64,000 nt of DNA from Longimicrobiales bacterium (GCA_965198065.1 CBDAON010000004.1:704001-768000), one strand, 5' to 3'; counted from the first letter of the stretch, positions 2,286-37,779 are shown. Program-made: numbers and translations. Notes: a model not told the origin generated them from the sequence alone.

Positions 2286-2706
2286 TCACTCCGAATCCAA
2301 CCCTTGGCGCATCGAGAGGAGGAAGGGCTCTCCAGCTCCCAGCCTGGCTTGGGCATCGGCGATCGTCCTCGCCGCAGGCAGATCGAGCGCTGCCTGGCCA
2401 GAGGCGCAGGTTACCGTGATGTGCATGGGCGTGTAGATGCCGCTTGTGATGAGAGCGGCCACCCCGTTCACGAACGAGTGCTCAGTCACCACCTGCGCCA
2501 CTCCCGAGGGGCATCGCGCCGCCGCCTCCACGACGTTCGGAGAAACGAGTCCACCGAGGAAGCTGTGAGCCCAAGGAATGTCGATCGTCTGAGCACTCGG
2601 GGTCCTCCCGGTTTCGATCACCGTTCGATAGCAGCCCGCCGTCACGGAGAGCAGGAGGATGCTCATGGAGAGAACTATTCATGAATGCAAACGATGAGCG
2701 TCTCAT
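2286..2706 (-). CDS. Bor/Iss-family lipoprotein, copy 1 (apparent +1 frameshift in the signal peptide near 2681)
   Basis: Lipobox-like TAGC; SFVNGVAALITSGIYTPMHITVTC resembles the lambda Bor FVNGLLGFITLGIYTP motif; GGAGGG RBS precedes ATG 2706 and removing one A gives MRRSSFAFMIVLSMSILLLSVTAGC. Confidence 0.8.
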
Positions 2707-2929
2707 GGTGGTCCCTCCGCGGGCAACAGGTAGGCTTTTCAGAAACCCCCGAACCTGAGCGTCACGATGCTCTCCCACCCATAACGTAGAGCGTCCGGTC
2801 CGCGTCACATTTGGGAGGCCGTGAAGACGGAGCGCGCCGCGTGGCCCGGCAAGAACCGGCAGCACTCGGCGGAGCCGGCCCGGCGATGGTCGCGCGCTCC
2901 GAGGTCGTCTCCACTACCAGGACGTGAGC

Positions 2930-3636
2930 ATGAGGGGATTCGCAGCGGTTTCGTGGGCCTCGGCCGTTACGGTCTGGGCCTCGACAGCCCTCGGACAGCA
3001 GCCTCCCCGGGGTCCAGGGAACCCACCGCCACCCCCATCCGCCAGGCAGCTACAGGACGAGCGTGGAGTCGACGTCTCCGTCTTCGGTCTCCTCTATACC
3101 GGCTTCGGCCGGGTCACCGACGGAGCGTCGCAGTCGAATTGGCTTCTCGCGGACGCCGCGTTCGGCGGCGGTCTGGGAGCGTCGCTCAATGCGTGGGACA
3201 ATTCAGGGTGGGCGTGGAGCTGTCCGTCGCCCGAACGCCCTACGAGCGTCGCGCCCGGGCGGGCAACGCGATCTCGGGTGCGGGAGATGCCACCGTCGGC
3301 ACGGTGCTCTTCACGGCTCGCCTGTCCCAGAGCGGCTTTCGGATCCCGGGGATCCCAGGCATCGGGGGCGTCGGATTCGGGAGCATTCCGGGGTTTGCCA
3401 CCTACCTTTCGGGAGGCCTCGGCGCGGTCTCGTACTGGCTGGAGGACCTCGATGGTGGCAACGCGGATTTCGCGTTCGCGGTCGGAGGCGGCCTCGAGTA
3501 CACCTGGTCGGGCGGAACCGTGGGCTTCCTGGAGGTGAGGCAACTCTGGGCCCTCCACGAGCGCGAGGGCGTGGAGACCTCGATGGCACGCCACTCGCGG
3601 ATCGAGCTGGGCTTGCGGCGTCCCGTGCGGAGGTGA
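2930..3636 (+). pseudogene. Outer-membrane beta-barrel-like protein, frameshifted near 3190
   Basis: Signal peptide and N half in ORF 2924-3538; C half (FRVGVELS, YLSGGLG, AVGGGLEY, IELGLR) in the frame of ORF 2821-3636. Confidence 0.65.
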
Positions 3637-3715
3637 GGGGGGCGGCGCTCCGCCGGAGGTGACGGGGTCGCCCGGCTACCCGGCGGAACGACGGGGTCGG
3701 GAGCGCGAGTGGCTC

Positions 3716-4758
3716 CTACCAGTCCTCCAAAGCGGGTTCGTCCGGGTCCGAGGAGAGGAACCGGATCAGCTCTGCGTTCACGATCTCGGGCACCTCTTCG
3801 TGCGGGTTGTGACCCACGTTCGGGATGAGCACGAGCTCGGCGTTCGGGAGCGACTCAGCCGCCCTCCGGGCATTCTCCGGGAAGTTCGGCCCATCTTCCG
3901 CCCCACCGAGCACCATGGCCTTCGTCTGGATGTGGGGGCCAGTCGTTCACCACGCTGTCGATCGAGCGGAGGTTGCCTCCCAGAGAGCGAACGTACCGGA
4001 GCCGTGGCCACTCGCCACTCAAGGCCTGTCCATAGCGAATGCGGAGGTGTTCCATGAACTGCGGTCTCCAATTCACATAGCGGTTCAGATCGGTTCGCAC
4101 GCCTGATTCGTAGACCTCCTGAGGATCCGCATCCACCTCGATCTCCCCGCTCATCGGGCGGAAGCCACGGCCCGCTCGGTTGTCGGTGAGACCGACGGCA
4201 TTGACCAGGACGAGGTGCGTCGTCATCTCCGGGTAGAGAAAGGCGAAACGGGTGGCCATCTGCCCCCCGATCGAATGACCCACGACCGCCGCCTTCGGAG
4301 ATCCTCAGGTGCTCGAGGACCCGTGCCGTGTTCGAGGCGTGCAGGCTGATGCTGTAGGGAAGGATTGGCTTGGAGGACTTGCCCCACCCGAGCCGATCCT
4401 TCACGACGACACGGAAGCCCTCGTTACGGAGGGCCTCGATCTGTTCTTTCCAATACCAGCCGTAGTAGCTCCCACCGTGAAGGAACACCACGGTCCGGCC
4501 GTTGGGCGGCCCGACCGGCGGCACATCCATATACGCGATCCGGACGTCCTGCCCATACAGATTGAGGTTCAGGAGGTGCACGGGATGGGGATACTCGATC
4601 TCCTCCATGTTGATGGAGATCGGCCCCCAGTCGGCCGGCGGTTCGGCCGGTGGTTGATCCCCCTGCGCCCGCAGCTCGACGCTTGCGAAGCAAAGCACGA
4701 GCAAGCAGATCGGCGGGACGGCAAAGAAGTCGCGAAATGACGTGCGTGGAAGCGTCAT
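3716..4758 (-). pseudogene. Secreted alpha/beta hydrolase split by two +1 frameshifts (~4290 and ~3937)
   Basis: VVFLHGG, DRLGWGKS, nucleophile elbow GHSIGG and C-terminal VGHNPHEE lie in three successive frames. Confidence 0.85.
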
Positions 4759-5088
4759 CGGTTTCCCCTGGCGTGAATTCGAACTCGGAGTGTGAACGGC
4801 CGCCACCACGGCCATCAGAACCCATTCCTACGGATGATACCGGAGGACCGACGACCCATGCAACCGAGTGAGGGCGGCCGGGTCGCGGCCGGAAGAGCGA
4901 ATGTTTGCCGCTGCCTTCGGGCAGCCCGATTCGGCGATAGTCGTTGTGGGAGAACGGAGGGGGCAGGTACGTGCCGTTACGAAGACGAATCACGGAACTG
5001 CGCCCAACTGAGAAGACACGGGAAAAGAATGCTGGGCGTTCCGGGGGGCAGCCGTAGGGAGGATTCGCTACCCTACGGGACCGCGCGG

Positions 5089-6414
5089 TCACAGCGTAAG
5101 CTGGAAATCCTCCACAAGTAGGCCGGGCAACGCCATCACTCGAGTTGAGCGCTCCCGATAGGTACGCGGGTCGACGAGGAGCTCCGGCTTCGTGGTCAGT
5201 CCGAGCAATCCCTCGCCCAGCATCCGGTACAGGCTGTCGTCAAAGCGCATCACGTTTAACGGGGCTTTGATCTTCCCTTCCTCGACCCAGAAGGAGGCGA
5301 AGCGGGTCATGCCGGTCATGCGGCAGTCATTGCGGTCCGAGTAGTTGCAGTACCAGGCGTCGCTGATGTAGACCCCGGTGCCCAAACGCTCGAGTACCTC
5401 GCTCTCGGGTAGATGGCCGGGCGCCATGAACAGGGACGTGGGGAGCTCGGAGTCGGCGTTGACGGGCTCCCCGAACTCCTTCGCCGAGCGCGACCCAGCC
5501 AGAGCGCCTCGGCAAGCCCCCTCCTCGATGAGCACTACCTTCTCGGGTTTGATGAACCCCTCCATTGTAAAGGGTGGGGCCATCCCGCCCCCGTGGTTCT
5601 CAGTGATGGTAATGGAGGGGTCGAAGCGTTCGTCACCCTTCACCATCTTCACCAGGGACGTATTCCCGGTTCGGTGGCCCTTGAGACCGAAGCCCTCCCA
5701 GCCCAACACCTGCATGAGCTCGGCCCCTGCCCGGGGGGCCAGGTAGGCTCGGTAGGCGCCGCGAGGCACCGTGCGCGGCGGGCGGGTCATCATCTCCAAC
5801 TCCTCCCGCGCTCGGTCCAGGCGGTCCCCCAGAGCGTCCTCATCCCAATTGAACCCGGCGTACCCGCCCTTCACGGCCTTGTCGCCGAGGTGGTGGCAGC
5901 TGAAGTCGAAGTTGAACGTGCTTGTCTCGAACCAGTTGCGTTGTCCAAAAGCGTTGGCGAAGCCTCGATCCAGCGTCCCGCTCGCCCAGATGCCGACCAT
6001 GTCCAGGTCATCAGCGGTGCGAGTGATGATGTCGATTGCCTCTCGGGGGTCCGATAGCGCCGATGGACGCACGTCCTCCGTATCCTGAACCGTTTCCGCG
6101 TAATGCAGATGCGGGTCCTCCCCGAGGTGCGCACGCTGGGAGCGCAGCTCCTCCAGCAAGCGCTCCACACCGATTCGGTCCCGCGTCAGGTCGCCGCTCA
6201 GGGGAACGGTGCCCACCGCGTGGCGGGCGCCCTCGATCAGGTCGATGGACACGAACCTCTGCGTCACATGGCCCGCCTGACGCACCCGGTTGTGGTTGAA
6301 CCGGGCGAAGTCCGAATCCTCACCCGCGTAGTAGGAGGTGAAGAGTTCCCCCGGCCGCAGCGCTGACGCGACGATGCCGGCCACCTCGAAAAAGAGCGTT
6401 CGTGGCTCCATCAC
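5089..6414 (-). CDS. tldE: TldE/PmbA-family protein
   Basis: ARFNHNRVRQ N-terminus, TGMTRFASFWVEEG and MRFDDSLY motifs; overlaps the tldD stop. Confidence 0.85.
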   Translation of the reverse strand: MMEPRTLFFEVAGIVASALRPGELFTSYYAGEDSDFARFNHNRVRQAGHVTQRFVSIDLIEGARHAVGTVPLSGDLTRDRIGVERLLEELRSQRAHLGEDPHLHYAETVQDTEDVRPSALSDPREAIDIITRTADDLDMVGIWASGTLDRGFANAFGQRNWFETSTFNFDFSCHHLGDKAVKGGYAGFNWDEDALGDRLDRAREELEMMTRPPRTVPRGAYRAYLAPRAGAELMQVLGWEGFGLKGHRTGNTSLVKMVKGDERFDPSITITENHGGGMAPPFTMEGFIKPEKVVLIEEGACRGALAGSRSAKEFGEPVNADSELPTSLFMAPGHLPESEVLERLGTGVYISDAWYCNYSDRNDCRMTGMTRFASFWVEEGKIKAPLNVMRFDDSLYRMLGEGLLGLTTKPELLVDPRTYRERSTRVMALPGLLVEDFQLTL

Positions 6415-7841
6415 TCCTCCCCGAACACCTCGACGTCCCGAAATCGGCAGGTTGGCGCGGCATGACCGGCGGAGATCCCCTGGTTGGGCTCGCCCTTGCC
6501 GCAGCTCGGCGTCCCCATCACCTCGAAGGTATCCCGATTCCCAACGCCATCGAGGCTCCGCCAGAAGACTGCCGAGACGCCCCGATATCGCGGGTCCCGC
6601 ACCATGCCCTTCACCTCCCCGTCCTCAATCAGCCATCCTACCTCGCAGCCGAACTGGAACTTGTTGCGGGAGTCGTCGATGGACCACGAGCGGTTGGTAT
6701 CCATCAGGACGCCACGTTCCACCCCACCGACGAGGTCCGCCATGCTATCGGTTCCCGGCTCCAGGTTCACGTTCGACATCCTGTCGATGGGAGGACGATT
6801 CCAGCTCGTGGCGCGGGAGTTCGCGACACCGGGCAGCCCGGATCGGGCCTGGGAGATGGCGCCCCCGAGGGGGCGTTCGAGAATACCCCTACGGATCAGG
6901 TAGGCCCGCTCGGCTGGGGTGCCATCATCGTCGAACGCGTAGCTGGCCGCTTCCCCCGGGATGTCCGGCGCAAAGGTCACGTTGAGGAGGGACGAGCCGT
7001 ACCGGTAGCGGCCGAACATGTCCAGCGTAACGAAGCTGGTGCCCGCGTAATTCCGCTCGTCGCCCAGGATTCGATCGAGCTCCAGCGGGTGACCGATGCT
7101 CTCGTGAACCTGCAACACCATCTGGCTCGGCATCAGCACCAGGCTGGTGGTCCCGCTGGGGCAGGTCGGGGCATCCAGTAGCTGGAGCGCTTCGGCGGCG
7201 ACACGGGCACTCTGAGACACGTAGCCGATCCGCTCCAGCTCCTCCAGGCCGCCTTGACGGTAGGAGGAGTGACCCAGCGTACGAGACTGAGAGCGTTCCC
7301 CTCGGTTGGCCACTGCTCCGAGCACCGGGTGGAGGGTCGCCGTGGACTGCTCCATCCAAGCCCCGTCGCCGGAGACCAAGAGAGATTCCCGGCTCGTATG
7401 AGCGATTTGAGCGTACCAATCGACGATGGCGTCCCCGGCCTTGAGCCCCCTCGAAGCCATCCGGAGCAGGTCGAGCTTCTCGCTGAGGCTCCACCGGTCC
7501 CATGGGATCCTACCGGGACGGTGGTCGTTTCCCTGCCCGGTCAGGCGCGGATAGTCCTTCGGCGCAATGAGCGCGTACGCGCCGGCGGCCCGAGCCCAGC
7601 TACGCGCCACCTCGAAGGCTCGCGTGAGCCCCCGGGGGGTCAGGTCGCAGGTGGCCCCGTAGCCGATGCCCCCACCGTCCAGCACGGTGACCATGGCGCC
7701 CGCATCGTGGTACGTGTAGGGGGGCTCCACGACACCCCGGCGCACCGTCAGCACGTGGGCGCTGTCCTCCACGAGACGCAGGGTCCAGTAGTCCGCACTC
7801 GGAGCGGAATGCGCAAACTCGCGCGCGATCTGGTCTAGCAC
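6411..7841 (-). CDS. tldD: TldD-family metalloprotease
   Basis: HESIGH zinc motif, PPIDRMSN, C-terminal CGKGEPNQ. Confidence 0.9.
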   Translation of the reverse strand: MLDQIAREFAHSAPSADYWTLRLVEDSAHVLTVRRGVVEPPYTYHDAGAMVTVLDGGGIGYGATCDLTPRGLTRAFEVARSWARAAGAYALIAPKDYPRLTGQGNDHRPGRIPWDRWSLSEKLDLLRMASRGLKAGDAIVDWYAQIAHTSRESLLVSGDGAWMEQSTATLHPVLGAVANRGERSQSRTLGHSSYRQGGLEELERIGYVSQSARVAAEALQLLDAPTCPSGTTSLVLMPSQMVLQVHESIGHPLELDRILGDERNYAGTSFVTLDMFGRYRYGSSLLNVTFAPDIPGEAASYAFDDDGTPAERAYLIRRGILERPLGGAISQARSGLPGVANSRATSWNRPPIDRMSNVNLEPGTDSMADLVGGVERGVLMDTNRSWSIDDSRNKFQFGCEVGWLIEDGEVKGMVRDPRYRGVSAVFWRSLDGVGNRDTFEVMGTPSCGKGEPNQGISAGHAAPTCRFRDVEVFGEE

Positions 7842-8153
7842 GGGGATGCGTCGGCCCTCGCTGCGTCGTCTTTCGGGGCGATGTCCGCGCGGACTCCTGC
7901 GGGGGCAGGGAGGAGGATCGGGAAGGTGTGGTGGACGAGCAACATGTGAGGCCGGTCTCGCGTTGGCAAATCCGGACTCTCATCCTGCGGTAAACTGAAA
8001 GTCCTCTGTCCCCGGTTCGAGCCGAGCGGGCGACTAACTCCCCCCTCTTTCAGCACGTTCCCAGCAGGAGGGCCCGGACACACACCAGAGCCCGATCTGC
8101 GGAGAGGGGGGCTTAGATCGTGACCGGCCGATTCTGTAAGTCGTTGTGCCGCA

Positions 8154-8210
8154 CGGAGGGGGTGGGACTCGAACCCACGTGGGGAGTTACCCCCAACCTC
8201 GGTTTTCAAG
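8154..8210 (-). repeat. Displaced tRNA-Ser(TGA) 3' half; att junction between elements A and B
   Basis: 53/57 identical to 14023-14079; identity stops at the anticodon loop (CTTGAAA). Confidence 0.92.
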
Positions 8211-8375
8211 GCGGGATAGGGCTTTCCGGCTAGATCCGTCTCGGTCCGAAAGGCTCTGTCCCGTCTGGATTCTTTGGAATCTGCTTTCCGGCGGAGTCCG
8301 TCGTGATCCCTCCAAAGTCGGATGCCCGGGTAACAAACCGGGTAACACTCCCTCAACCGGGCTGACGGCTTTTCG

Positions 8376-8780
8376 TCACTCCGAATTCGGCCCCCGTCCC
8401 ATTGGGAGAAGAAAGTCCTCCCCGGCGTCCACCCTGGCTCTCGCTTCCGCCAGGCTCCGCACTGTCGGCACATCGAGCGCCGCCGTGCCTGCAGCGCACG
8501 TGACGGTGATGTGCATGGGAGTGTAAATCCCTCCAGTAATGAACGCGGCCACGCCGTTCACAAACGAGTGCTCGGTAACGACGCGTGCCACTCCCGACGG
8601 ACACCGAGCTGCCGATTCTACTAGGTTCGGGGGAACGAGACCCCCGAGGAAGCTGTGCGCCCACGGGATGTCGATAGTTTGCGTGCCCACGGGCGTCGCG
8701 GTTTCGATGACAGCTCGGTAGCAGCCCGAGGAGACCGAGAGCAGCAGAATGGTCGTGGTAAGAATGAGGGGTCTGATCAC
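8376..8780 (-). CDS. Bor/Iss-family lipoprotein, copy 2
   Basis: Lipobox-like SSGC; SFVNGVAAFITGGIYTPMHITVTC; clear paralogue of 2286-2706. Confidence 0.85.
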   Translation of the reverse strand: MIRPLILTTTILLLSVSSGCYRAVIETATPVGTQTIDIPWAHSFLGGLVPPNLVESAARCPSGVARVVTEHSFVNGVAAFITGGIYTPMHITVTCAAGTAALDVPTVRSLAEARARVDAGEDFLLPMGRGPNSE

Positions 8781-8887
8781 GGCACAACTCCTGACAATAG
8801 GGTGAACCGCAACTCGTGACTACAGGCGAAGATGCGGGCGTGAAGAACCACTTGCAAGAGAAGCGGCCCGAGTCCCCTACCCCACCG

Positions 8888-9178
8888 CTAGTCTTCTCCC
8901 CGCAAAGAGGCCCACCCTGCATCGGTTCTCATAACCGACATGAGCGTCTGTAGGACAACAGTTCCCGGGAGGGTGTTACCCGAATTGTACCTTTGCCCCC
9001 CCCTCTCTACGGTGGTGTGAAGAGCGGGAATCAGCTCACCGACACCCCCCAGGGAGCCCCTGTCTGGGTCCCATCCTGGAGACTCCTTCACCTGTAGCTC
9101 CGCAAGATTCAGAAACCGTTCGTGCCCCTCGATGCCGTTCGACGCCTTCACGAACCTGTATAGGTACTTGGTGTTCAT
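8888..9178 (-). CDS. Hypothetical protein, possibly only the 5' part is real
   Basis: AAGGA RBS, follows the SPFH gene; 3' half overlaps non-coding-looking repeated motifs. Confidence 0.3.
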   Translation of the reverse strand: MNTKYLYRFVKASNGIEGHERFLNLAELQVKESPGWDPDRGSLGGVGELIPALHTTVERGGQRYNSGNTLPGTVVLQTLMSVMRTDAGWASLRGED

Positions 9179-9209
9179 CGAGGGGTCCTTTCGTACATGA
9201 GGAGTGCCA

Positions 9210-10004
9210 TCACGGAGCGACGTTCACCAGCGCACCCTGCGGAACGAATACGCAGCGGCTAGTTTCGCTCGCGCAGACCTCGCGCTGCATCTCGATCTCC
9301 TGGAGCGCCACAAATTGCGCCGGGCTCAGACCGAGCGAGTTCCGGTAGGCGTTGTCCGCCAAGGCGCGGGACTGTTCCGCCGCTAGGCGTGCGTCCTCGG
9401 CTAGCCTACGCTCGTTCTCGGTGAGCTGTCGTTGCTGCTGGGTTGCAGTTTCGACGCGCTGACTCTCAACGGCGTCCGGTGGATTCGCCCGACCCACGGT
9501 AACCTGTATGAGCCGAAGCGGTAGCTCCGCATCCAGGAGGTAGATCTCCATCTCTGCCGTGACTTCGGCGTCGATATCGTCGATTGCCTCCGTGGAGATC
9601 GCCGTCTCATTCATTCCGTGTTGCCGGACTGCCTGTCTCACTCGATTTTGGAACTCGATGGCTACGTTCTGATCGAACCATTGTACTCCGAACCCCTCGA
9701 TCAGCCGTACGCTGTTCGTGACCTGTAGGCGAATCACGGCGTTGAAGTCGAGCGGAACACCATCCGACGACATGATGTCCTCGAACGCCATTGAGAACTG
9801 CTGGGGCCGGATGTCCACGTAGGTCGGTGTGGTCGTGATCCACACCCAATTACGTCCGGTTGGCGTCGCGGAGTCTACGACCCCGCCACTCCCGAAGACG
9901 ATCGGGTATCGAGTCAGGACCGCTTCCTCGCCGGGGCCAGGAGTCACAGCTCGACAGCTTGCCAGAGACCCTGCCGCTAGAAGCAGAAGGACCGAACGTC
10001 TCAT
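9210..10004 (-). CDS. SPFH/band-7 domain lipoprotein
   Basis: AAGGAGGT RBS before ATG 10004; lipobox LASC; SSDGVPLDFNAVIRLQV motif and C-terminal coiled-coil segment. Confidence 0.8.
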   Translation of the reverse strand: MRRSVLLLLAAGSLASCRAVTPGPGEEAVLTRYPIVFGSGGVVDSATPTGRNWVWITTTPTYVDIRPQQFSMAFEDIMSSDGVPLDFNAVIRLQVTNSVRLIEGFGVQWFDQNVAIEFQNRVRQAVRQHGMNETAISTEAIDDIDAEVTAEMEIYLLDAELPLRLIQVTVGRANPPDAVESQRVETATQQQRQLTENERRLAEDARLAAEQSRALADNAYRNSLGLSPAQFVALQEIEMQREVCASETSRCVFVPQGALVNVAP

Positions 10005-10542
10005 TTGATGTACCTCCTTGGTGTTCACGTGCTCCTCATCCTCCATCAGAAGACCGCCTAGTCAGGAGGGCACACTAATGGCCCTCTTTCCGTCGTGGTC
10101 GGCGGCTAATTCACGAAGGGCACTCCCACGAGGATACCCCCGCTTATTATGCCCTCTGACTGACTAGGCCACAAAGCGAGCTAGGGAATCGAACGCTAGA
10201 GGACGCCTGTCTCGCCGCTCATCGTTCTTCCTTCCTCGCCGCAGCGGTCCGGCTCGACCAGTACCCGGAGGTCGTCGCCGCCTTCCTCCTCACTGGCGGT
10301 CGGCGCAGTCTTCGGGCTTCCCCTTTCGGCGCTCCATGTAGGGCCCGAGGATTGACCTGCCCCCAAAAGCGGTACCACCTAGAGTGTTAGTCCAAGCACC
10401 TCCTTTTGGCTGGGGGGTGGTCCAAGAAGCAGAGGTAGGTTGAGCAGCTTTGGGTCTGGCCGGATCGCTTCGGGGGCCGGGGGTCGATAACCCAGAGAGC
10501 TGTGCGGTCGATGCGTGTTGTATTCGCGCCGCCACTGCTCGA

Positions 10543-11235
10543 TCAGCACCTTCGCCTTTCGCGCTTCAGCAGCTCGTTTCGGAGCGTGCCGTTAAAGCTC
10601 TCATTGTAGCCGTTCTCCCACGGGCTGCCCGGCTCGATGAACAGCGTCTTCACGCCTAGCTCACCGAGCCACTGCCGAACCACTCGGGCCGTGAACTCCG
10701 GACCGTTGTCGGAGCGAAGATTCGCCGGTGGACCGTGCTCGGCAAACAGCTCGCTCAGCGTCTGCAGAACATCGTCCGCCTGAAGCCTGCGAGTCACCAC
10801 GATCGCCAGGCACTCCCGGCTGTACTCATCCAGCACCGTCAGCATCTTGAGCGGCCGTCCATCATGCGTCCGGTCCGCCACGAAGTCATACGCCCATACA
10901 TGGTGTCGGTACAGGGGCCGCAGTCGGATACAAGAACCGTCGGTCAGCCACAGCCTTCCTCGTTTCGGCTGCTTACTTGGCACCTTGAGCCCCTCCTGTC
11001 TCCAGATCCGCTCCACCCGCTTGTGGTTCACGGCCCAGCCCTCCGTCCTCAGCATCCCCGTCACCATCCGGTACCCGTAGCGTCCAAACCGTCGGGCCAC
11101 CTTCACCACGTCCTCTCTCAGCGCCTCCTCATCTTCGCTTCGCTTCGGTATCCGACGCTGCGTCGAGCGTGCCTGGCCCAACACCCGGCACGCCTTCCTT
11201 TCGCTCACCCCAAGCCGCTGCCGCACGTGCACCAC
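10543..11235 (-). CDS. IS3 OrfB DDE transposase; C-terminus frameshifted by a short deletion near 10555
   Basis: WAYDF, LRSDNGPEF, PGSPWENGYNESFNG; expected tail IEQWRREYNTHRPHSSLGYRPP continues in another frame. Confidence 0.9.
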   Translation of the reverse strand: MVHVRQRLGVSERKACRVLGQARSTQRRIPKRSEDEEALREDVVKVARRFGRYGYRMVTGMLRTEGWAVNHKRVERIWRQEGLKVPSKQPKRGRLWLTDGSCIRLRPLYRHHVWAYDFVADRTHDGRPLKMLTVLDEYSRECLAIVVTRRLQADDVLQTLSELFAEHGPPANLRSDNGPEFTARVVRQWLGELGVKTLFIEPGSPWENGYNESFNGTLRNELLKRERRRC

Positions 11236-11258
11236 GCACCGCCTGCGCCACTCGGGGC

Positions 11259-11540
11259 TCAGTAGTTTCCCTTGGAGGCTTCCTTCAAAATCAGGTTGTC
11301 GACCGTCAGATCCGCCACCGCCTGCTTCAGGCGTTGGTTTTGCTTCTCGAGCTCCTTCAGACGCTTCGCCTGGCCCACCTTCATTCCCCCGTACTCCTTA
11401 CGCCACCGGTAGTATGTCTGCTCGCTCACCCCCAGCTCACGGCACACTTGCTTGACCCTCTTCCCGTTCGCCAGGGCCACCTCCGCCTTGCGTAGCTGGT
11501 TGATGATCTGTGCCGGACTCAGCCTCTTTGGTGCGGCCAT
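11259..11540 (-). CDS. IS3 OrfA HTH protein
   Basis: VCRELGVSEQTYYRWRKEYGG, RLKELEKQNQRLK; ends at the GGGAAAC -1 slippery heptamer. Confidence 0.92.
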   Translation of the reverse strand: MAAPKRLSPAQIINQLRKAEVALANGKRVKQVCRELGVSEQTYYRWRKEYGGMKVGQAKRLKELEKQNQRLKQAVADLTVDNLILKEASKGNY

Positions 11541-11760
11541 TGTGCCCTCCCCTTTCGTGTCTTGACCCCGTCCAGATTCTAAAACTGGACTCGGTCTCGT
11601 TTTAGGGGGTCAGATCAACCGGGCTAGGAAGGGTCGGACGCCTAGACGGCTAGTGAAACAAGCTTCTCCGGGAGGCAAGCGTCGCCCTTGCGGTTTAGAG
11701 CTTCCACCCGAATGATTCGGTCGGGCTCTATCCCGAGGTCCTTCCCATCTGGAGGTCTCC

Positions 11761-12991
11761 ATGGACCGCACACGCGCTGGGCGCTTTGCCCCTCTGTCTT
11801 TGATCGTATTCGTCGTTACCGCGTGGTTTGCGGTGCCATCCGGCGCGACGGCGCAGCAAGATGATCGCCTCGCCGAGCCCTTCTACGGGATCACTACGGA
11901 TGGCGATCTGGTCGCTGACCTCTTCCCGATACGTGCGACGGGGGTCTCGACCGCCCCGATCGTGGAGGCAGCCAGGCACTACTTAAGCACATTGTCGCCC
12001 GGGCAGATCGCACGAACGAGCTTCGATCTGGATGACAGTGAGTGGCGACACTGGAGTAATGTCCCCGTTGGCAACACTCCTCGGGCCGGCCTGTCCTTCA
12101 GAGATATGAACGACGCTCAAATGGAGGCGGCGTTCGCGATGGTGCGTGCGGGGATGAGCGCTCGCGGATTCAACCTGGCGCGGAATATCATGCGCATCGA
12201 CGGCTACCTGGCCGACGTTCTCGACAACCTAGAGGGATAACGGAGAGTTCCTCTATTTCATCGACATCTTCGGGGAGCCGCATGAAACCGAGCCTTGGGG
12301 ATGGCAACTCGATGGGCATCACCTGGTCGTCAACTTCTTCATCATGGGAGATCAGGTCGTGATGTCGCCCAACTTCTGGGGATCCGAGCCAACCCGGATC
12401 GAGACGGGCAGGTTCGCGGGAGTGGAAGCCCTGCAGGAGGAGCAGGATGTCGGCTTAGCCTTCATGGAGTCCCTGCGGCCCGATCAGGTTCGGACAGCAA
12501 CCGTCGAGACGGACAAGACCTCCAACAACCAGTTGGCCGCCGCCTTCAGAGATAATGTGATCATTGAGGAAGCCGGCATCCGGGGAGACCAACTGGACGC
12601 GGCGCAGCGCGAGCTCCTCATGGACGTCGTCGGCATCTGGGTCGGCCACATTCGGGAAGAGCACGCCGGCATCAAAATGGCCGAGGTTCGGGCCCATCTG
12701 GACGAAACCCGGTTTGCCTGGGTCGGCGACGTGGGTGACGATGCCCTGTACTACTACCGGGTCCACAGCCCCGTCATGATCATTGAGTTCGATCACTCGA
12801 TCCCGGTCAGCTTCCCCGTAGAGCCTCGGATGCCTTCGCGAACCCACATTCACGCGGGCGTTCGGACTCCGAACGGAAATGACTACGGAAAGGATCTGCT
12901 CCGGCAGCACTACGAGCAGCACGCCAACGACCCGAACCACGTGCACGATCATCCGTACCCAGCGGGGTCGGCGACAGCCGGCGGTCCATGA
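11761..12991 (+). pseudogene. Secreted DUF3500-like protein with a +1 frameshift near 12239
   Basis: WRHWSNVP, WGWQLDGHHL, YYRVHSPVMIIEFDH, HIHAGVRTPNGNDYG; deleting one A in GGATAACGGA restores ...LEGYGEFLYF. Confidence 0.8.
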
Positions 12992-13381
12992 TCTCCTGCG
13001 GTCCGGTCATCCGGTGGCCTGAGCGTCGGGTATCGGGTCGGTCCATCAGGTAGCGAACGCGGCGGGCGTCGGTGAACGGCGCCCGCCGCGAGCGTTCTGT
13101 AACCCCGGGGCTACCCTAGCCTACGGCACGCCGACTCCCCTTCCTGGAGAGTCGTCTTGGTATCCGCACCGCTGAAGGGACGTACGACCCTCCGAATGGC
13201 ACTCTTGAGGTGAGCGCCCACGTAAGCTCGACATCGGCCGAAAGTGCAGTCAAAGGCGACACTTACAGTGCGCCCCATCTAGAGCAGAATGTGACTCGCC
13301 GAAGCCCCCCAGGGAGGGGGTGTAAATGGGTCCCCATAGAGAGGTACGATCTACGAGTGCGCCTTCTTGACTCGGGCCTTC

Positions 13382-13522
13382 TTAATGGTGTTGGGCGGCG
13401 GTGTAGACGAGGAAGCTCACGACACCGAGGAAGCTCACGATACCTACGTAGGCCGCGATCACGCCGACCCACTGGAACGTCCACCATCCCCGCTCGATCA
13501 GATTCGCCTGGTGCGCGTTCAT
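13382..13522 (-). CDS. 46-aa small membrane protein (below the ORF-track cutoff)
   Basis: GGAGG RBS; MNAHQANLIERGWWTFQWVGVIAAYVGIVSFLGVVSFLVYTAAQHH*. Confidence 0.55.
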   Translation of the reverse strand: MNAHQANLIERGWWTFQWVGVIAAYVGIVSFLGVVSFLVYTAAQHH

Positions 13523-13719
13523 GATGCCCTCCCGTGTTCATCGGACGAAGCCGAGGATTTCGCGGCCCGGAGCTCGTCCCCGGGTCTGCCCGCCGACTTA
13601 GACGTACCTACGCGAAATAGGGGTTGGGGGATTCAGGGCACCATCAGCCTGACCCTCGGTCAGTTGGTCCCATCTAGAGCAGGACTTGACTTACCGACAC
13701 CCCCCAGGAGGGTTACACG

Positions 13720-13997
13720 CTCCACGACCATCGCCACACGGCCGCGCCGTCCACCTCGCGCGGGCCGGCATGCCCCTGAACCTGCTCCAGGGCCAGCTCG
13801 GGCATACAACGATCTCAATGACAATGCGCTACGCCCGGCTCCACCCGGACTACTCGGACGTCCGCGAATACTTCGACCGTGTGGGTGAGCGGTTCGGGCT
13901 GGCCGCTCCGGAAAAGGTTTCCGCTTCTCCGGGTAACAAAACGGGTAACACTCCCTCCGAAGAGCCCCTCGAAGCGGCTCCGCGCGAGCACGTCTGA
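13720..13997 (+). pseudogene. C-terminal remnant of a tyrosine integrase
   Basis: HD-x-RHTA (frameshifted), then AVHLARAGMPLNLLQGQLGHTTISMTMRYA (box II LGH...Y); N-terminal and core domains absent. Confidence 0.85.
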
Positions 13998-14022
13998 TGC
14001 GGCGTAAGTTGTTGCGGGAGAA

Positions 14023-14110
14023 CGGAGGGGGTGGGACTCGAACCCACGTGGGCTGTTAGGCCCAACCTCGGTTTTCAAGACCGGTACCTTAGCCGCTCGG
14101 TCACCCCTCC
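14023..14110 (-). tRNA. tRNA-Ser(TGA), CCA not encoded
   Basis: GGAGGGG/CCCCTCC acceptor stem, discriminator G, anticodon loop CTTGAAA, long variable arm, GTGGG-TTCGAGT-CCCAC T arm. Confidence 0.95.
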
Positions 14111-35564: not shown

Positions 35565-37779
35565 TCAACCCACGGGCGCCGCGGAAAGCACCTGGAGCTC
35601 GAAGGGCCCCTCTCCATCCGCCGCGGGAGCTCCGACGACCCGCACGCGCGCCCCCTCACCGACGTCCTCCTCGAGCAGCCGGAGGGCCAGCGGGTTCTGG
35701 ATACGCTGCTGAATCACGCGCTTAAGGGGACGTGCCCCGAACATGGGGTCGTAGCCCTCCTCGGCGAGCGCGATCTTCACGTCGTCCTCCACCTCGAGCA
35801 CGACGCCGAGCTCCTCGGCAAGGCGGCGGACCCGCTCGAGCTGGAGGTTCACGATCTGACGGAGGTCGTCCCGGTCCAACGGGCGGAAGACCACCACGTC
35901 GTCCACCCGGTTCAGGAACTCGGGCCGGAAGTGCCGGCGCATCTCGCCCATCACCCGTTCCTCTACCTCCGACCACTCGGCCCGGGGACCCTGCTCCAGG
36001 ATGTACTGGCTCCCTATGTTCGAGGTCATGATGACAACGACGTTCCGGAAGTCGACCGTCCGTCCCTGGGAATCCGTGAGCCGGCCGTCGTCCAGGATCT
36101 GGAGGAGGAGGTTGAACACCTCCGGGTACGCCTTCTCGATCTCGTCGAAGAGCACCACGGAGTGCGGCCTCCGCCTCACCGCCTCGGTGAGCTGTCCCCC
36201 CTCCTCGTATCCGATGTAGCCGGGCGGGGCACCGATGAGCCGCGCCACCGCGTGCTTTTCCATGTACTCGGACATGTCGATCCTGACCATCGCGCGCTCG
36301 TCGTCGAACAGGAACTCGGAGAGCGCCCTCGCGGTCTCCGTCTTCCCCACTCCTGTGGGCCCGAGAAAGATGAACGACCCGACGGGGCGCGCCGGATCCT
36401 GGAGGCCGGCCCGCGCCCTCCGCACCGCGTTCGCCACGGCAGCCAGCGCCTCGGCCTGGCCCACGACGCGCTCCCCCAAGAGCCCCTCCAGGTGCGTGAG
36501 CCGCTGGCGCTCAGACTCCATCAGGCGCGAGACCGGAATGCCTGTCCACTCCGCCACCACCTCCGCAATGTCGTCCGCCGAGACCTCCTCTCTCAGGAAC
36601 TTCCCGTCGGCCTGGAGCTCCTCCAGACGCGCTTCGGACTGGGCGACCTCCGACTGCGCGCGGGGGATCTGCAGCGGACGTAACCATTACGGTGTCCTGA
36701 ATGGCGACCTCCGACTGCGCGCGGGGGATCTCCCCGTACTGGAGCTGCGCGGCTCGCTCGAGATCGCCCACCCGTGTGGCCCGCTCGGCCTCCGACTTAA
36801 GCTCGTCGATCCGTTCCTTCGAGGCCTGGATGCGGGAGATGACGTCCTTCTCGGCCTGCCACTTCGCCTTCATGCCCGAGCTCTTCTCGCGCAGCCCGGC
36901 GAGCTCCTCCTCGATGGCCTCCCGGCGCTCCAGTGCGGAGCGGTCCTCCTCTCGGGCGAGCGCCTGGCGCTCGATCTCGAGCTGTGTGATCCGGCGCTCG
37001 AACTCGTCGATCTCCTCCGGAAGCGATTCGATCTCGATCCGGAGCCGGCTCGCCGCCTCGTCCATGAGGTCGATCGCCTTGTCCGGGAGGAAGCGTCCCC
37101 CGATATAGCGGTCGGACAGCTTGGCCGCCGCGATGAGCGCCTCGTCCCGGATCCGCACCCCGTGGTGAACCTCGTAGCGCTCCTTGAGCCCGCGGAGGAT
37201 CGCGATCGCGTCCTCTACGGAGGAAGGAGCCACGAAGACCGGCTGAAATCGGCGCTCGAGGGCGGGGTCCTTCTCGACGTGCTTCCGGTACTCGTCGAGG
37301 GTGGTGGCGCCCACGAGGCGCAGCTCGCCCCGGGCCAGCATCGGCTTCAGCATGTTCCCGGCATCCACCGCGCCCTCGGCAGCCCCCGCGCCCACGATCG
37401 TGTGCATCTCGTCAATGAATACGACGAAACGACCCTCGGACTCGGTGATCTCCTTCAGGACCGCCTTCATGCGGTCCTCGAACTCGCCCCGGTATTTGGC
37501 TCCCGCCAGCATAGCGGAGATGTCGAGCTGGACGAGCCGCTTGTCCACGAGAGACGTCGGGATGTCGCGGGCCAGCGCGTCGGCGACCCTCCCCTGGAGG
37601 AGCGAGACCCGGAGCCCCGCCTTCTCCAGCACCGGGCCGACGATCCCTCCCTCCTGCTCGAGCAGGGCCTGGAGAAGATGCGCCCCCGACACCTCGGGGT
37701 GTCCGGCGTCCCCCGCGGACCGCGACGCGGCCTCGAGGGCTTGTCCCGCCTTGACGGTTAGACGATCGAGTGCAGCCAT
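35565..37779 (-). pseudogene. clpB: Chaperone ClpB, disrupted by a 61-bp insertion and an in-frame deletion in NBD1
   Basis: [28 protein letters not shown]-domain, [25 protein letters not shown]1 Walker A absent; frame breaks at ~36700. Confidence 0.92.
36642..36731. repeat. Perfect 29-bp direct repeat flanking a 32-bp unique insert (single repeat-spacer-repeat unit)
   Basis: GGCGACCTCCGACTGCGCGCGGGGGATCT at 36642-36670 and 36703-36731; insert GCAGCGGACGTAACCATTACGGTGTCCTGAAT. Confidence 0.95.

Follow-up and report, generated by a model that had tools for sequence, protein, structure and literature searches.

A candidate type I-E spacer integration outside the CRISPR arrays, in the clpB gene of a Longimicrobiales bacterium

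The clpB gene of a wild Longimicrobiales bacterium is interrupted by a 61-bp insertion that very probably arose when a type I-E Cas1-Cas2 complex made a full-site, off-target integration of a spacer. The insertion lies in a stretch of 64,000 nucleotides ("the window", numbered from its first letter) on contig C4 of a 3.05-Mb genome (G000: four contigs, 87.6% complete) from a lineage whose phylum we take to be Gemmatimonadota-like. The reading rests on several features: a duplication of 28 bp around an insert of 33 nt, empty sites in sister strains, recurrence of the same footprint, a motif held in one register of the target, arrays of period 61 in the host, and the lack of a local template. 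An ectopic type I-E integration captured in a wild genome had been proposed from the sequence alone; the geometry, the empty sister sites, further scars and the register motif now support this proposal.

The insertion in clpB and its empty alleles

The gene is encoded on the minus strand and is identified as clpB by profile TIGR03346 (Table 1). Two identical 29-mers (36642-36670 and 36703-36731) are separated by 32 nt, and the insert has 53% G+C against 67% for the contig: both the perfect duplication and the AT-richer insert are as the sequence-only reading described them. However, the last base of the insert (36703) equals the base preceding the first copy (36642), and it is this single coincidental match, the 29th, that gives the apparent 29+32 form. 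The better description of the unit is a target duplication of 28 bp plus a 33-nt insert, the arrangement that had already been named as the mechanistic one and that fits all three isolated units of the genome. With the insertion in place the clpB frame continues through ∼62 foreign codons to a stop at 36511; the 5′ part thus consists of one Clp_N repeat, a truncated first AAA domain, the middle domain and a frameshifted tail. When one 61-bp unit is excised in silico, 717 codons and a stop are read in one uninterrupted frame, in line with the restored frame that the sequence-only reading had noted.

Table 1. Position of the clpB insertion and gene parts (window coordinates) and of four further scars
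Feature	Location	Strand	Remarks
First copy, 28-bp target	36643..36670	+	Native clpB coding sequence, type I-E repeat-like; exact repeat; single copy in sister-strain contigs
33-nt spacer-like insert, first base G	36671..36703	+	Unique in genome; present in X2, absent from X1, X3 and X7
Second copy, 28-bp target	36704..36731	+	Exact repeat
clpB 5′ part, 422 aa	36511..37779	-	TIGR03346 positions 1-65, then about 220-513; Pfam; translation
clpB 3′ part, second AAA domain	35565..36641	-	TIGR03346 positions 516-843; out of frame via the 61-bp insertion
Junction of second clpB lesion	37560..37575	-	In-frame deletion of ∼465 bp (155 codons); part of N-domain and first Walker A gone
Second scar, 28+33	G000:C4:1619241-1619329 (L003:5242-5330)		Breaks mutY (TIGR01084)
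Third scar, 28+33	G000:C4:1860216-1860305 (L004:5217-5306)		Just past DUF4159 gene, apparently intergenic
G068 scar, perfect 28+33	G068:C1:3584604-3584692 (L135:1005-1093)		Apparently intergenic, convergent genes
G057 scar, perfect 28+33	G057:C2 about 541700-541800 (L069)		Apparently intergenic, convergent genes

The insert occurs once in the genome, where the next-best match has 10 mismatches in 32. The longest words that the inserts of this genome have in common with their flanks are 8-9 nt, the same as at random loci, and no template for the fillers was found elsewhere in the genome; none of the three inserts is among the spacers of its three arrays. In one plus-strand frame the clpB insert consists of nine codons closed by a stop, with an ATG directly after it, which may, speculatively, resemble a tightly packed phage or island gene junction.

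The alleles of other populations were compared in Logan contigs (not raw reads) from four of the 23 runs listed: X1, X2, X3 and X7. An X2 contig with a depth of 4.7 covers 36290-37095 with no differences and no gaps and so carries the insertion; X2 may be the source sample and does not count as an independent population. In contigs from X1, X3 and X7, which come from three other studies and are about 99% identical, position 36641 is joined to 36703: exactly 61 bp are absent. The empty sites mean that the single-copy state is ancestral, that the target is native clpB sequence and that the event is recent. The clpB insertion is real, recent DNA.

Recurrence of the footprint and the target motif

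The host genome was scanned for exact direct repeats at periods 30-119 and, with mismatches allowed (at least 22/28), at periods 45-85. Outside the arrays there are three isolated units of period 61: in clpB (C4:740642), in mutY (C4:1619241) and in an apparently intergenic region (C4:1860216). The latter two are the other duplication-insertions of 61 bp for which a search had been advised. All three windows that reach 22/28 at this period are perfect and all are 28+33. Among control periods, 59 and 62 gave none and 60 gave three, consisting of one tandem duplication and two low-complexity tracts; the period-61 duplications are accordingly beyond chance. No older, decayed scar of period 61 was found in G000 at this threshold. 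At the periods expected of type I-G (70-74) there was no perfect unit outside arrays, only repeat-protein tracts and one window of 23/28. The three inserts are all different; each occurs once, measures exactly 33 nt and is without terminal repeats. In G001, the sister species, the position of the third scar is occupied by another DUF4159 gene, its second.

The comparison with runs covered the clpB and mutY sites, while the third site is known from the assembly. At mutY the site is empty in X1, X2, X3 and G001, X7 having no coverage there. Thus the mutY insertion is present in none of the three covering runs. One of these is X2, whose sequence agrees with the assembly at every other position over 2.4 kb; the insertion is known from the assembly alone. 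Either it arose after X2 had split off, or it is segregating, or it is unsupported.

The three targets resemble type I-E repeats to different degrees. On the plus strand the clpB 28-mer matches the repeat of array 1 (described below) at 18/28, a level reached by ∼4e-4 of contig positions (both strands, two registers); against the host repeats the mutY target matches at 16/28 (∼3e-3 of positions) and the third at 14-15/28 (∼2-5e-2 of positions). The sequence-only reading had placed the repeat on the minus strand, where the clpB 28-mer matches array 1 at 13/28 and array 2 at 15/28 and the insert begins with C. In the register of these best matches all three inserts start with G, as do all 23 spacers of array 1. 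The plus-strand orientation of the clpB unit is therefore favoured over the earlier register, though not proven. In this register the motif CCG-N4-CGCG occupies repeat positions 8-18 in all three targets and in both I-E-like array repeats. It stands in register at ∼1.2e-3 of contig positions; since the motif was partly picked after the sites had been seen, a joint figure overstates the case.

An imperfect palindrome in the target had also been offered as an argument. The palindrome, however, does not exceed chance (z = -1.07 and 0.06, compared with -3.15 for the array repeat), none of the four G000 target strands folded beat its shuffles, and the hairpin was rejected as a recognition feature. 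Since the array repeat does fold beyond chance and the targets do not, sequence rather than a hairpin is the likely cue. Elsewhere in the genome are matches of 20-22/28 to the array repeats that have no insertions; similarity to the repeat alone thus does not choose targets.

The motif, doubled at period 61, was then used as a pattern in 314 genomes of the family (G000 and 313 others). It matched three times in G000 and once in each of three of the 313 others, and a reversed control pattern matched once. In G057, from another genus, the match is an exact 29-bp run that begins at motif position 1 and surrounds a 33-nt insert. The match in G455 is ambiguous (25/28), and that in G008 was dismissed as chance (14/28). 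A looser pattern applied to five chosen genomes gave 20 matches in G068, of which three were inspected in full (one scar, two not) and 17 were dismissed on the matched string. The G068 scar is an exact 28+33 unit and starts again at motif position 1. The pattern fixes inner bases only, and the correct ends in two new genera are consequently an independent check.

The two genomes differ in their cas genes. A type I-E cas1 above the cut-off was found in one of 61 family genomes, and this is G068, which has a whole I-E operon and an array. The only cas1 found in G057 (assembly 70% complete) is a non-I-E one that adjoins an array with 32-bp repeats. No further scar was present in the 717 kb of G057 that were scanned, out of 4.8 Mb.

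G057 also has small I-E-like arrays of period 61. A 2.4-kb segment is present there in two copies that are 96% identical (G057:C6:44709-44900 and C12:185612-185750; L136, L137), and each copy opens with a small period-61 array of diverged I-E-like repeats; the terminal spacer is common to both and the others differ. These paired arrays could be grown neo-arrays or decayed arrays.

The origin of the inserts was sought in several collections. One 20-mer of the clpB insert had no match in viral contigs, none in metagenome contigs and one in genome contigs, which extends to 24/33; BLAST of the whole 33-mer returned five records each from phages and plasmids, all with E of at least 1. One 20-mer of the mutY insert had no viral match and three metagenome matches at 22-24/33. 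The third insert had no match in viral contigs, the one collection used for it. As a control, array 1 itself yielded two weak phage records (67-68% identity) and no spacer match. The search for a source and a PAM, which had been put forward as a check, thus gave neither a protospacer nor a PAM for the three inserts in the collections used for each.

Arrays, cas genes and the state of the struck genes

The check on I-E arrays and on cas1 and cas2 had a divided outcome. G000 contains two type I-E-like arrays of period 61, array 1 at C4:1501851 (23 spacers) and array 2 at C4:1749917, as well as an array with a 37-nt repeat on contig C1. The assembly, 87.6% complete, contains no cas1 or cas2 of any type (profiles PF01867, TIGR03638 and PF09707), and tblastn with the G068 operon found no I-E cas genes, Cascade and Cas6 included. 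Contig C4 closes on an internal repeat, so that the absence of cas genes may be real despite the incompleteness; the assembly also contains alternative paths. The repeat of array 1 was found in two of 401 genomes of the phylum, the second being a one-spacer remnant, and had no viral matches.

Neither I-E array has an AT-rich leader: one abuts a truncated IS1595, and next to the other lies a truncated gene that belongs to a repeated family. Both are rearranged. Array 2 (G000:C4:1749917-1750710, L002) contains two duplicated spacers and an inversion with a breakpoint in the middle of the palindrome of a repeat; its neighbours are a truncated gene and the remnant of an IS. A type I-G operon is split (G000:C4:1487600-1491195 and C1:1-3300): C1 branches from C4 inside a Cas7-like gene, its first 96 bp being the same as C4, and continues with the remainder of that gene, the next cas gene and the array of 37-bp repeats that is missing from C4. 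The C1 segment is probably an alternative haplotype. Cas4-Cas1 was not found. Together the leaderless arrays and the split operon suggest a defence island that is being lost, and a mixed population.

Loss of IHF or HU was considered as a cause of off-target integration and is not supported: one HU-like and one IHF-like gene look intact, and the third DNABII gene is a broken fragment. This fragment, IHF-like, frameshifted and truncated, lies ∼28 kb from array 2 (G000:C4:1778301-1778432, L039). A likely defence protein of 1117 codons, SIR2-like with a STAND NTPase, is encoded ∼4 kb from array 1 (G000:C4:1507466-1510819; L001:15467-18820).

The clpB gene has a second lesion. Compared with the relative L011 there is an offset near 37567 that corresponds to an in-frame loss of ∼465 bp, or ∼155 codons; the profile alignment passes from position 65 to about 220, and only the second Walker A is left. 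An X2 contig covers the deletion junction with no differences, and X2 therefore has both lesions. The X1 and X3 contigs, which are without the insertion, stop aligning at the deletion point and leave ∼400 bases unaligned there, as would be expected if their gene were intact. It had been claimed that the insertion knocked out clpB. That the spacer insertion caused the loss of the gene is unproven, given that the deletion also removes the first Walker A and that the order of the two lesions is unreadable. G000 also has an intact second Clp ATPase, seemingly ClpC-like, whose middle domain is short; no other such gene was found in G001 of the same genus. The latter genome (1.6 Mb, 92% complete; no clpB and no I-E repeat found) and G000 form an apparent genome-reduction series within one genus.

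The mutY gene had also been damaged by other means. In both G000 and X2 a compensated pair of one-base indels (L003 about 5888 and 6060) scrambles ∼57 C-terminal codons; the pair is absent from X1 and X3, and G001 keeps those codons in frame. As the indels are present in G000 and X2 and the insertion in G000 alone, the insertion in mutY came second. It seems that the scars endure at sites on which selection was weak beforehand.

A heavy load of pseudogenes is not apparent: most core genes of the window look whole by eye, and coding-like sequence covers ∼84% of C4 according to a rough model. The organism-derived runs, the repeat proteins and the small sister genome suggest that the lineage may be host-associated. 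Rfam identifies one tRNA in the window. A variable island at about 2300-14100 ends at a tRNA-Ser; judged by eye from the translations, it holds an IS3-like element, the remnant of what resembles an integrase, and a hydrolase gene with an apparent frameshift. Elsewhere on C4, 18 tRNA genes are clustered within 2.4 kb (G000:C4:1710874-1713237).

Explanations and comparison with known systems

Off-target integration could have proceeded as follows. A prespacer of 33 bp, its first base a PAM-derived G, would be captured by the complex, which would recognise an inner repeat motif, CCG-N4-CGCG-N-G at positions 8-20, and neither a hairpin nor a leader. The two ends would then be joined one to each strand, at a distance of 28 bp, and filling of the gaps by the host would copy the target, yielding one repeat-spacer-repeat unit and a frameshifted clpB; the scars in mutY and in intergenic DNA would be products of the same process. 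Their persistence is probably owed to weak selection: clpB is internally deleted and was not found in the reduced sister, and the C-terminus of mutY was scrambled earlier. For the cas genes the probable alternatives are loss from this haplotype once the events had taken place, residence in unassembled or minority DNA, and supply by a mobile element.

The most probable rivals concern the agent that made the duplication. Another integrase, whether of a mobile element or a Cas1-like enzyme, could in principle make 28-bp target duplications around short captured fragments, and G000, with no cas1 but many IS copies, and G057, with no I-E cas1, leave room for one. Such an enzyme is nonetheless an unlikely author of inserts that differ, measure exactly 33 nt, lack terminal repeats and sit within targets that hold the I-E inner motif in register, and the scar in G068 accompanies a full I-E operon. 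The target duplications of casposons and IS elements are much shorter than 28 bp. A repair accident independent of CRISPR, in which slipped-strand or microhomology-mediated duplication incorporates a templated or captured filler, would suit a genome with other short tandem duplications (periods 47-64 and 87) and a damaged mutY. We consider it quite improbable, for such repair would not settle on the lengths 28+33 five times over, nor hold a single motif in the same register, and the fillers have no local or genome-wide template. The sequence-only reading had allowed that a lineage without an I-E adaptation module, together with local template switching, would undo its proposal: cas1 and cas2 were indeed not found in the assembly, but template switching does not explain the insert.

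A sequencing or assembly artefact (adapter, barcode or chimera) is a very remote explanation. The mutY insertion is missing from the otherwise identical X2 and the assembly has alternative paths, both of which an artefact would accommodate; against this stand the X2 contig that reproduces the clpB insertion, the three differing single-copy inserts and the same footprint in assemblies of two other genera. That recombination moved a repeat-spacer unit from an existing array into clpB is barely credible: the target does match the array-1 repeat at 18/28 and both arrays are rearranged, yet both copies are pure clpB, match the single copy of the sister strains and include no array-repeat bases, and no insert is among the spacers of the three arrays. 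Off-target integration by type I-E Cas1-Cas2 thus remains the preferred reading.

The clpB unit had further been proposed as the seed of an array. Each of the three sites has one spacer, the hairpin is not significant and the assembly holds no I-E cas genes; with Cascade and Cas6 missing from the assembly, we predict that the unit is inert, a scar and not a working array. A broader proposition can be put forward only tentatively, and we regard it as possible but doubtful: that type I-E adaptation is a recurrent and still-active insertional mutagen across the family, which selects its targets by a simple rule and contributes to the loss of genes from a host-associated genome that is shrinking. 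The leaderless arrays would leave an integrase that had survived in a subpopulation, or come in on a mobile element, without its proper target and divert it to housekeeping genes, and the mutY event would still be segregating.

The scars matter for several reasons. In clpB, filled and empty alleles are both seen in wild populations; the mutY site differs between near-identical populations, and the ends of the scars in two further genera fell where the motif had placed them. Two questions become computable, namely the frequency with which adaptation mutates its own host, as a cost of immunity, and the possible origin of new arrays by this route. The scars also represent a dated trace of a CRISPR system whose cas genes can no longer be seen in the genome. 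The destruction of a working clpB being unproven, the implications for phenotype are limited.

Natural cases of off-target integration in two other species, Yersinia pestis and Sulfolobus islandicus, were reportedly proposed by Nivala, Shipman and Church. Off-target integration in E. coli is stated to be able to spawn new arrays and the evidence in the two other species is called circumstantial (10.1101/148544, on Nivala, Shipman and Church 2018), a description with which the paired clpB alleles can be compared. Other sources report off-target events detected by deep sequencing (PMC7054753) and non-array integrations upon overexpression of Cas1-Cas2 in E. coli (PMC11788318), and general or in vitro off-target activity is also covered in PMC11394691. 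A full-text search for a survey of natural scars found none; its coverage excludes most subscription papers, and such a survey may be in print.

A review (PMC10011333) gives the E. coli I-E protospacer as 33 bp and the apparent last base of the repeat as a PAM-derived G. The scars agree with this canonical adaptation in the 33-bp length, in a G that would be the PAM-derived 29th repeat base, and in the 61-bp unit; they differ in that no leader was recognised upstream, the clpB target is coding DNA and the unit is single. Studies of two other subtypes describe off-target integration in vitro, probably half-site in type II-A (PMC6895254) and suppressed by HU in type III-A (PMC13769266). There, too, the integrase recognises repeat- or junction-like sequence outside arrays and architectural proteins of the host set its fidelity, whereas the G000 events are fully repaired in the chromosome.

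The closest parallel is with the neo-CRISPR loci reported for E. coli type I-E (Nivala, Shipman and Church 2018, PMID 29379209): in both cases a host duplication of repeat length surrounds an insert of spacer length at a repeat-like, non-CRISPR site. Here the setting is wild, uncultured populations rather than overexpression, sister strains retain the empty sites and one site differs between near-identical populations; moreover, two housekeeping genes have been struck in an assembly without cas1 or cas2. In the way it works the clpB unit resembles the off-target integration that these authors described in E. coli, and it is most likely an instance of it.
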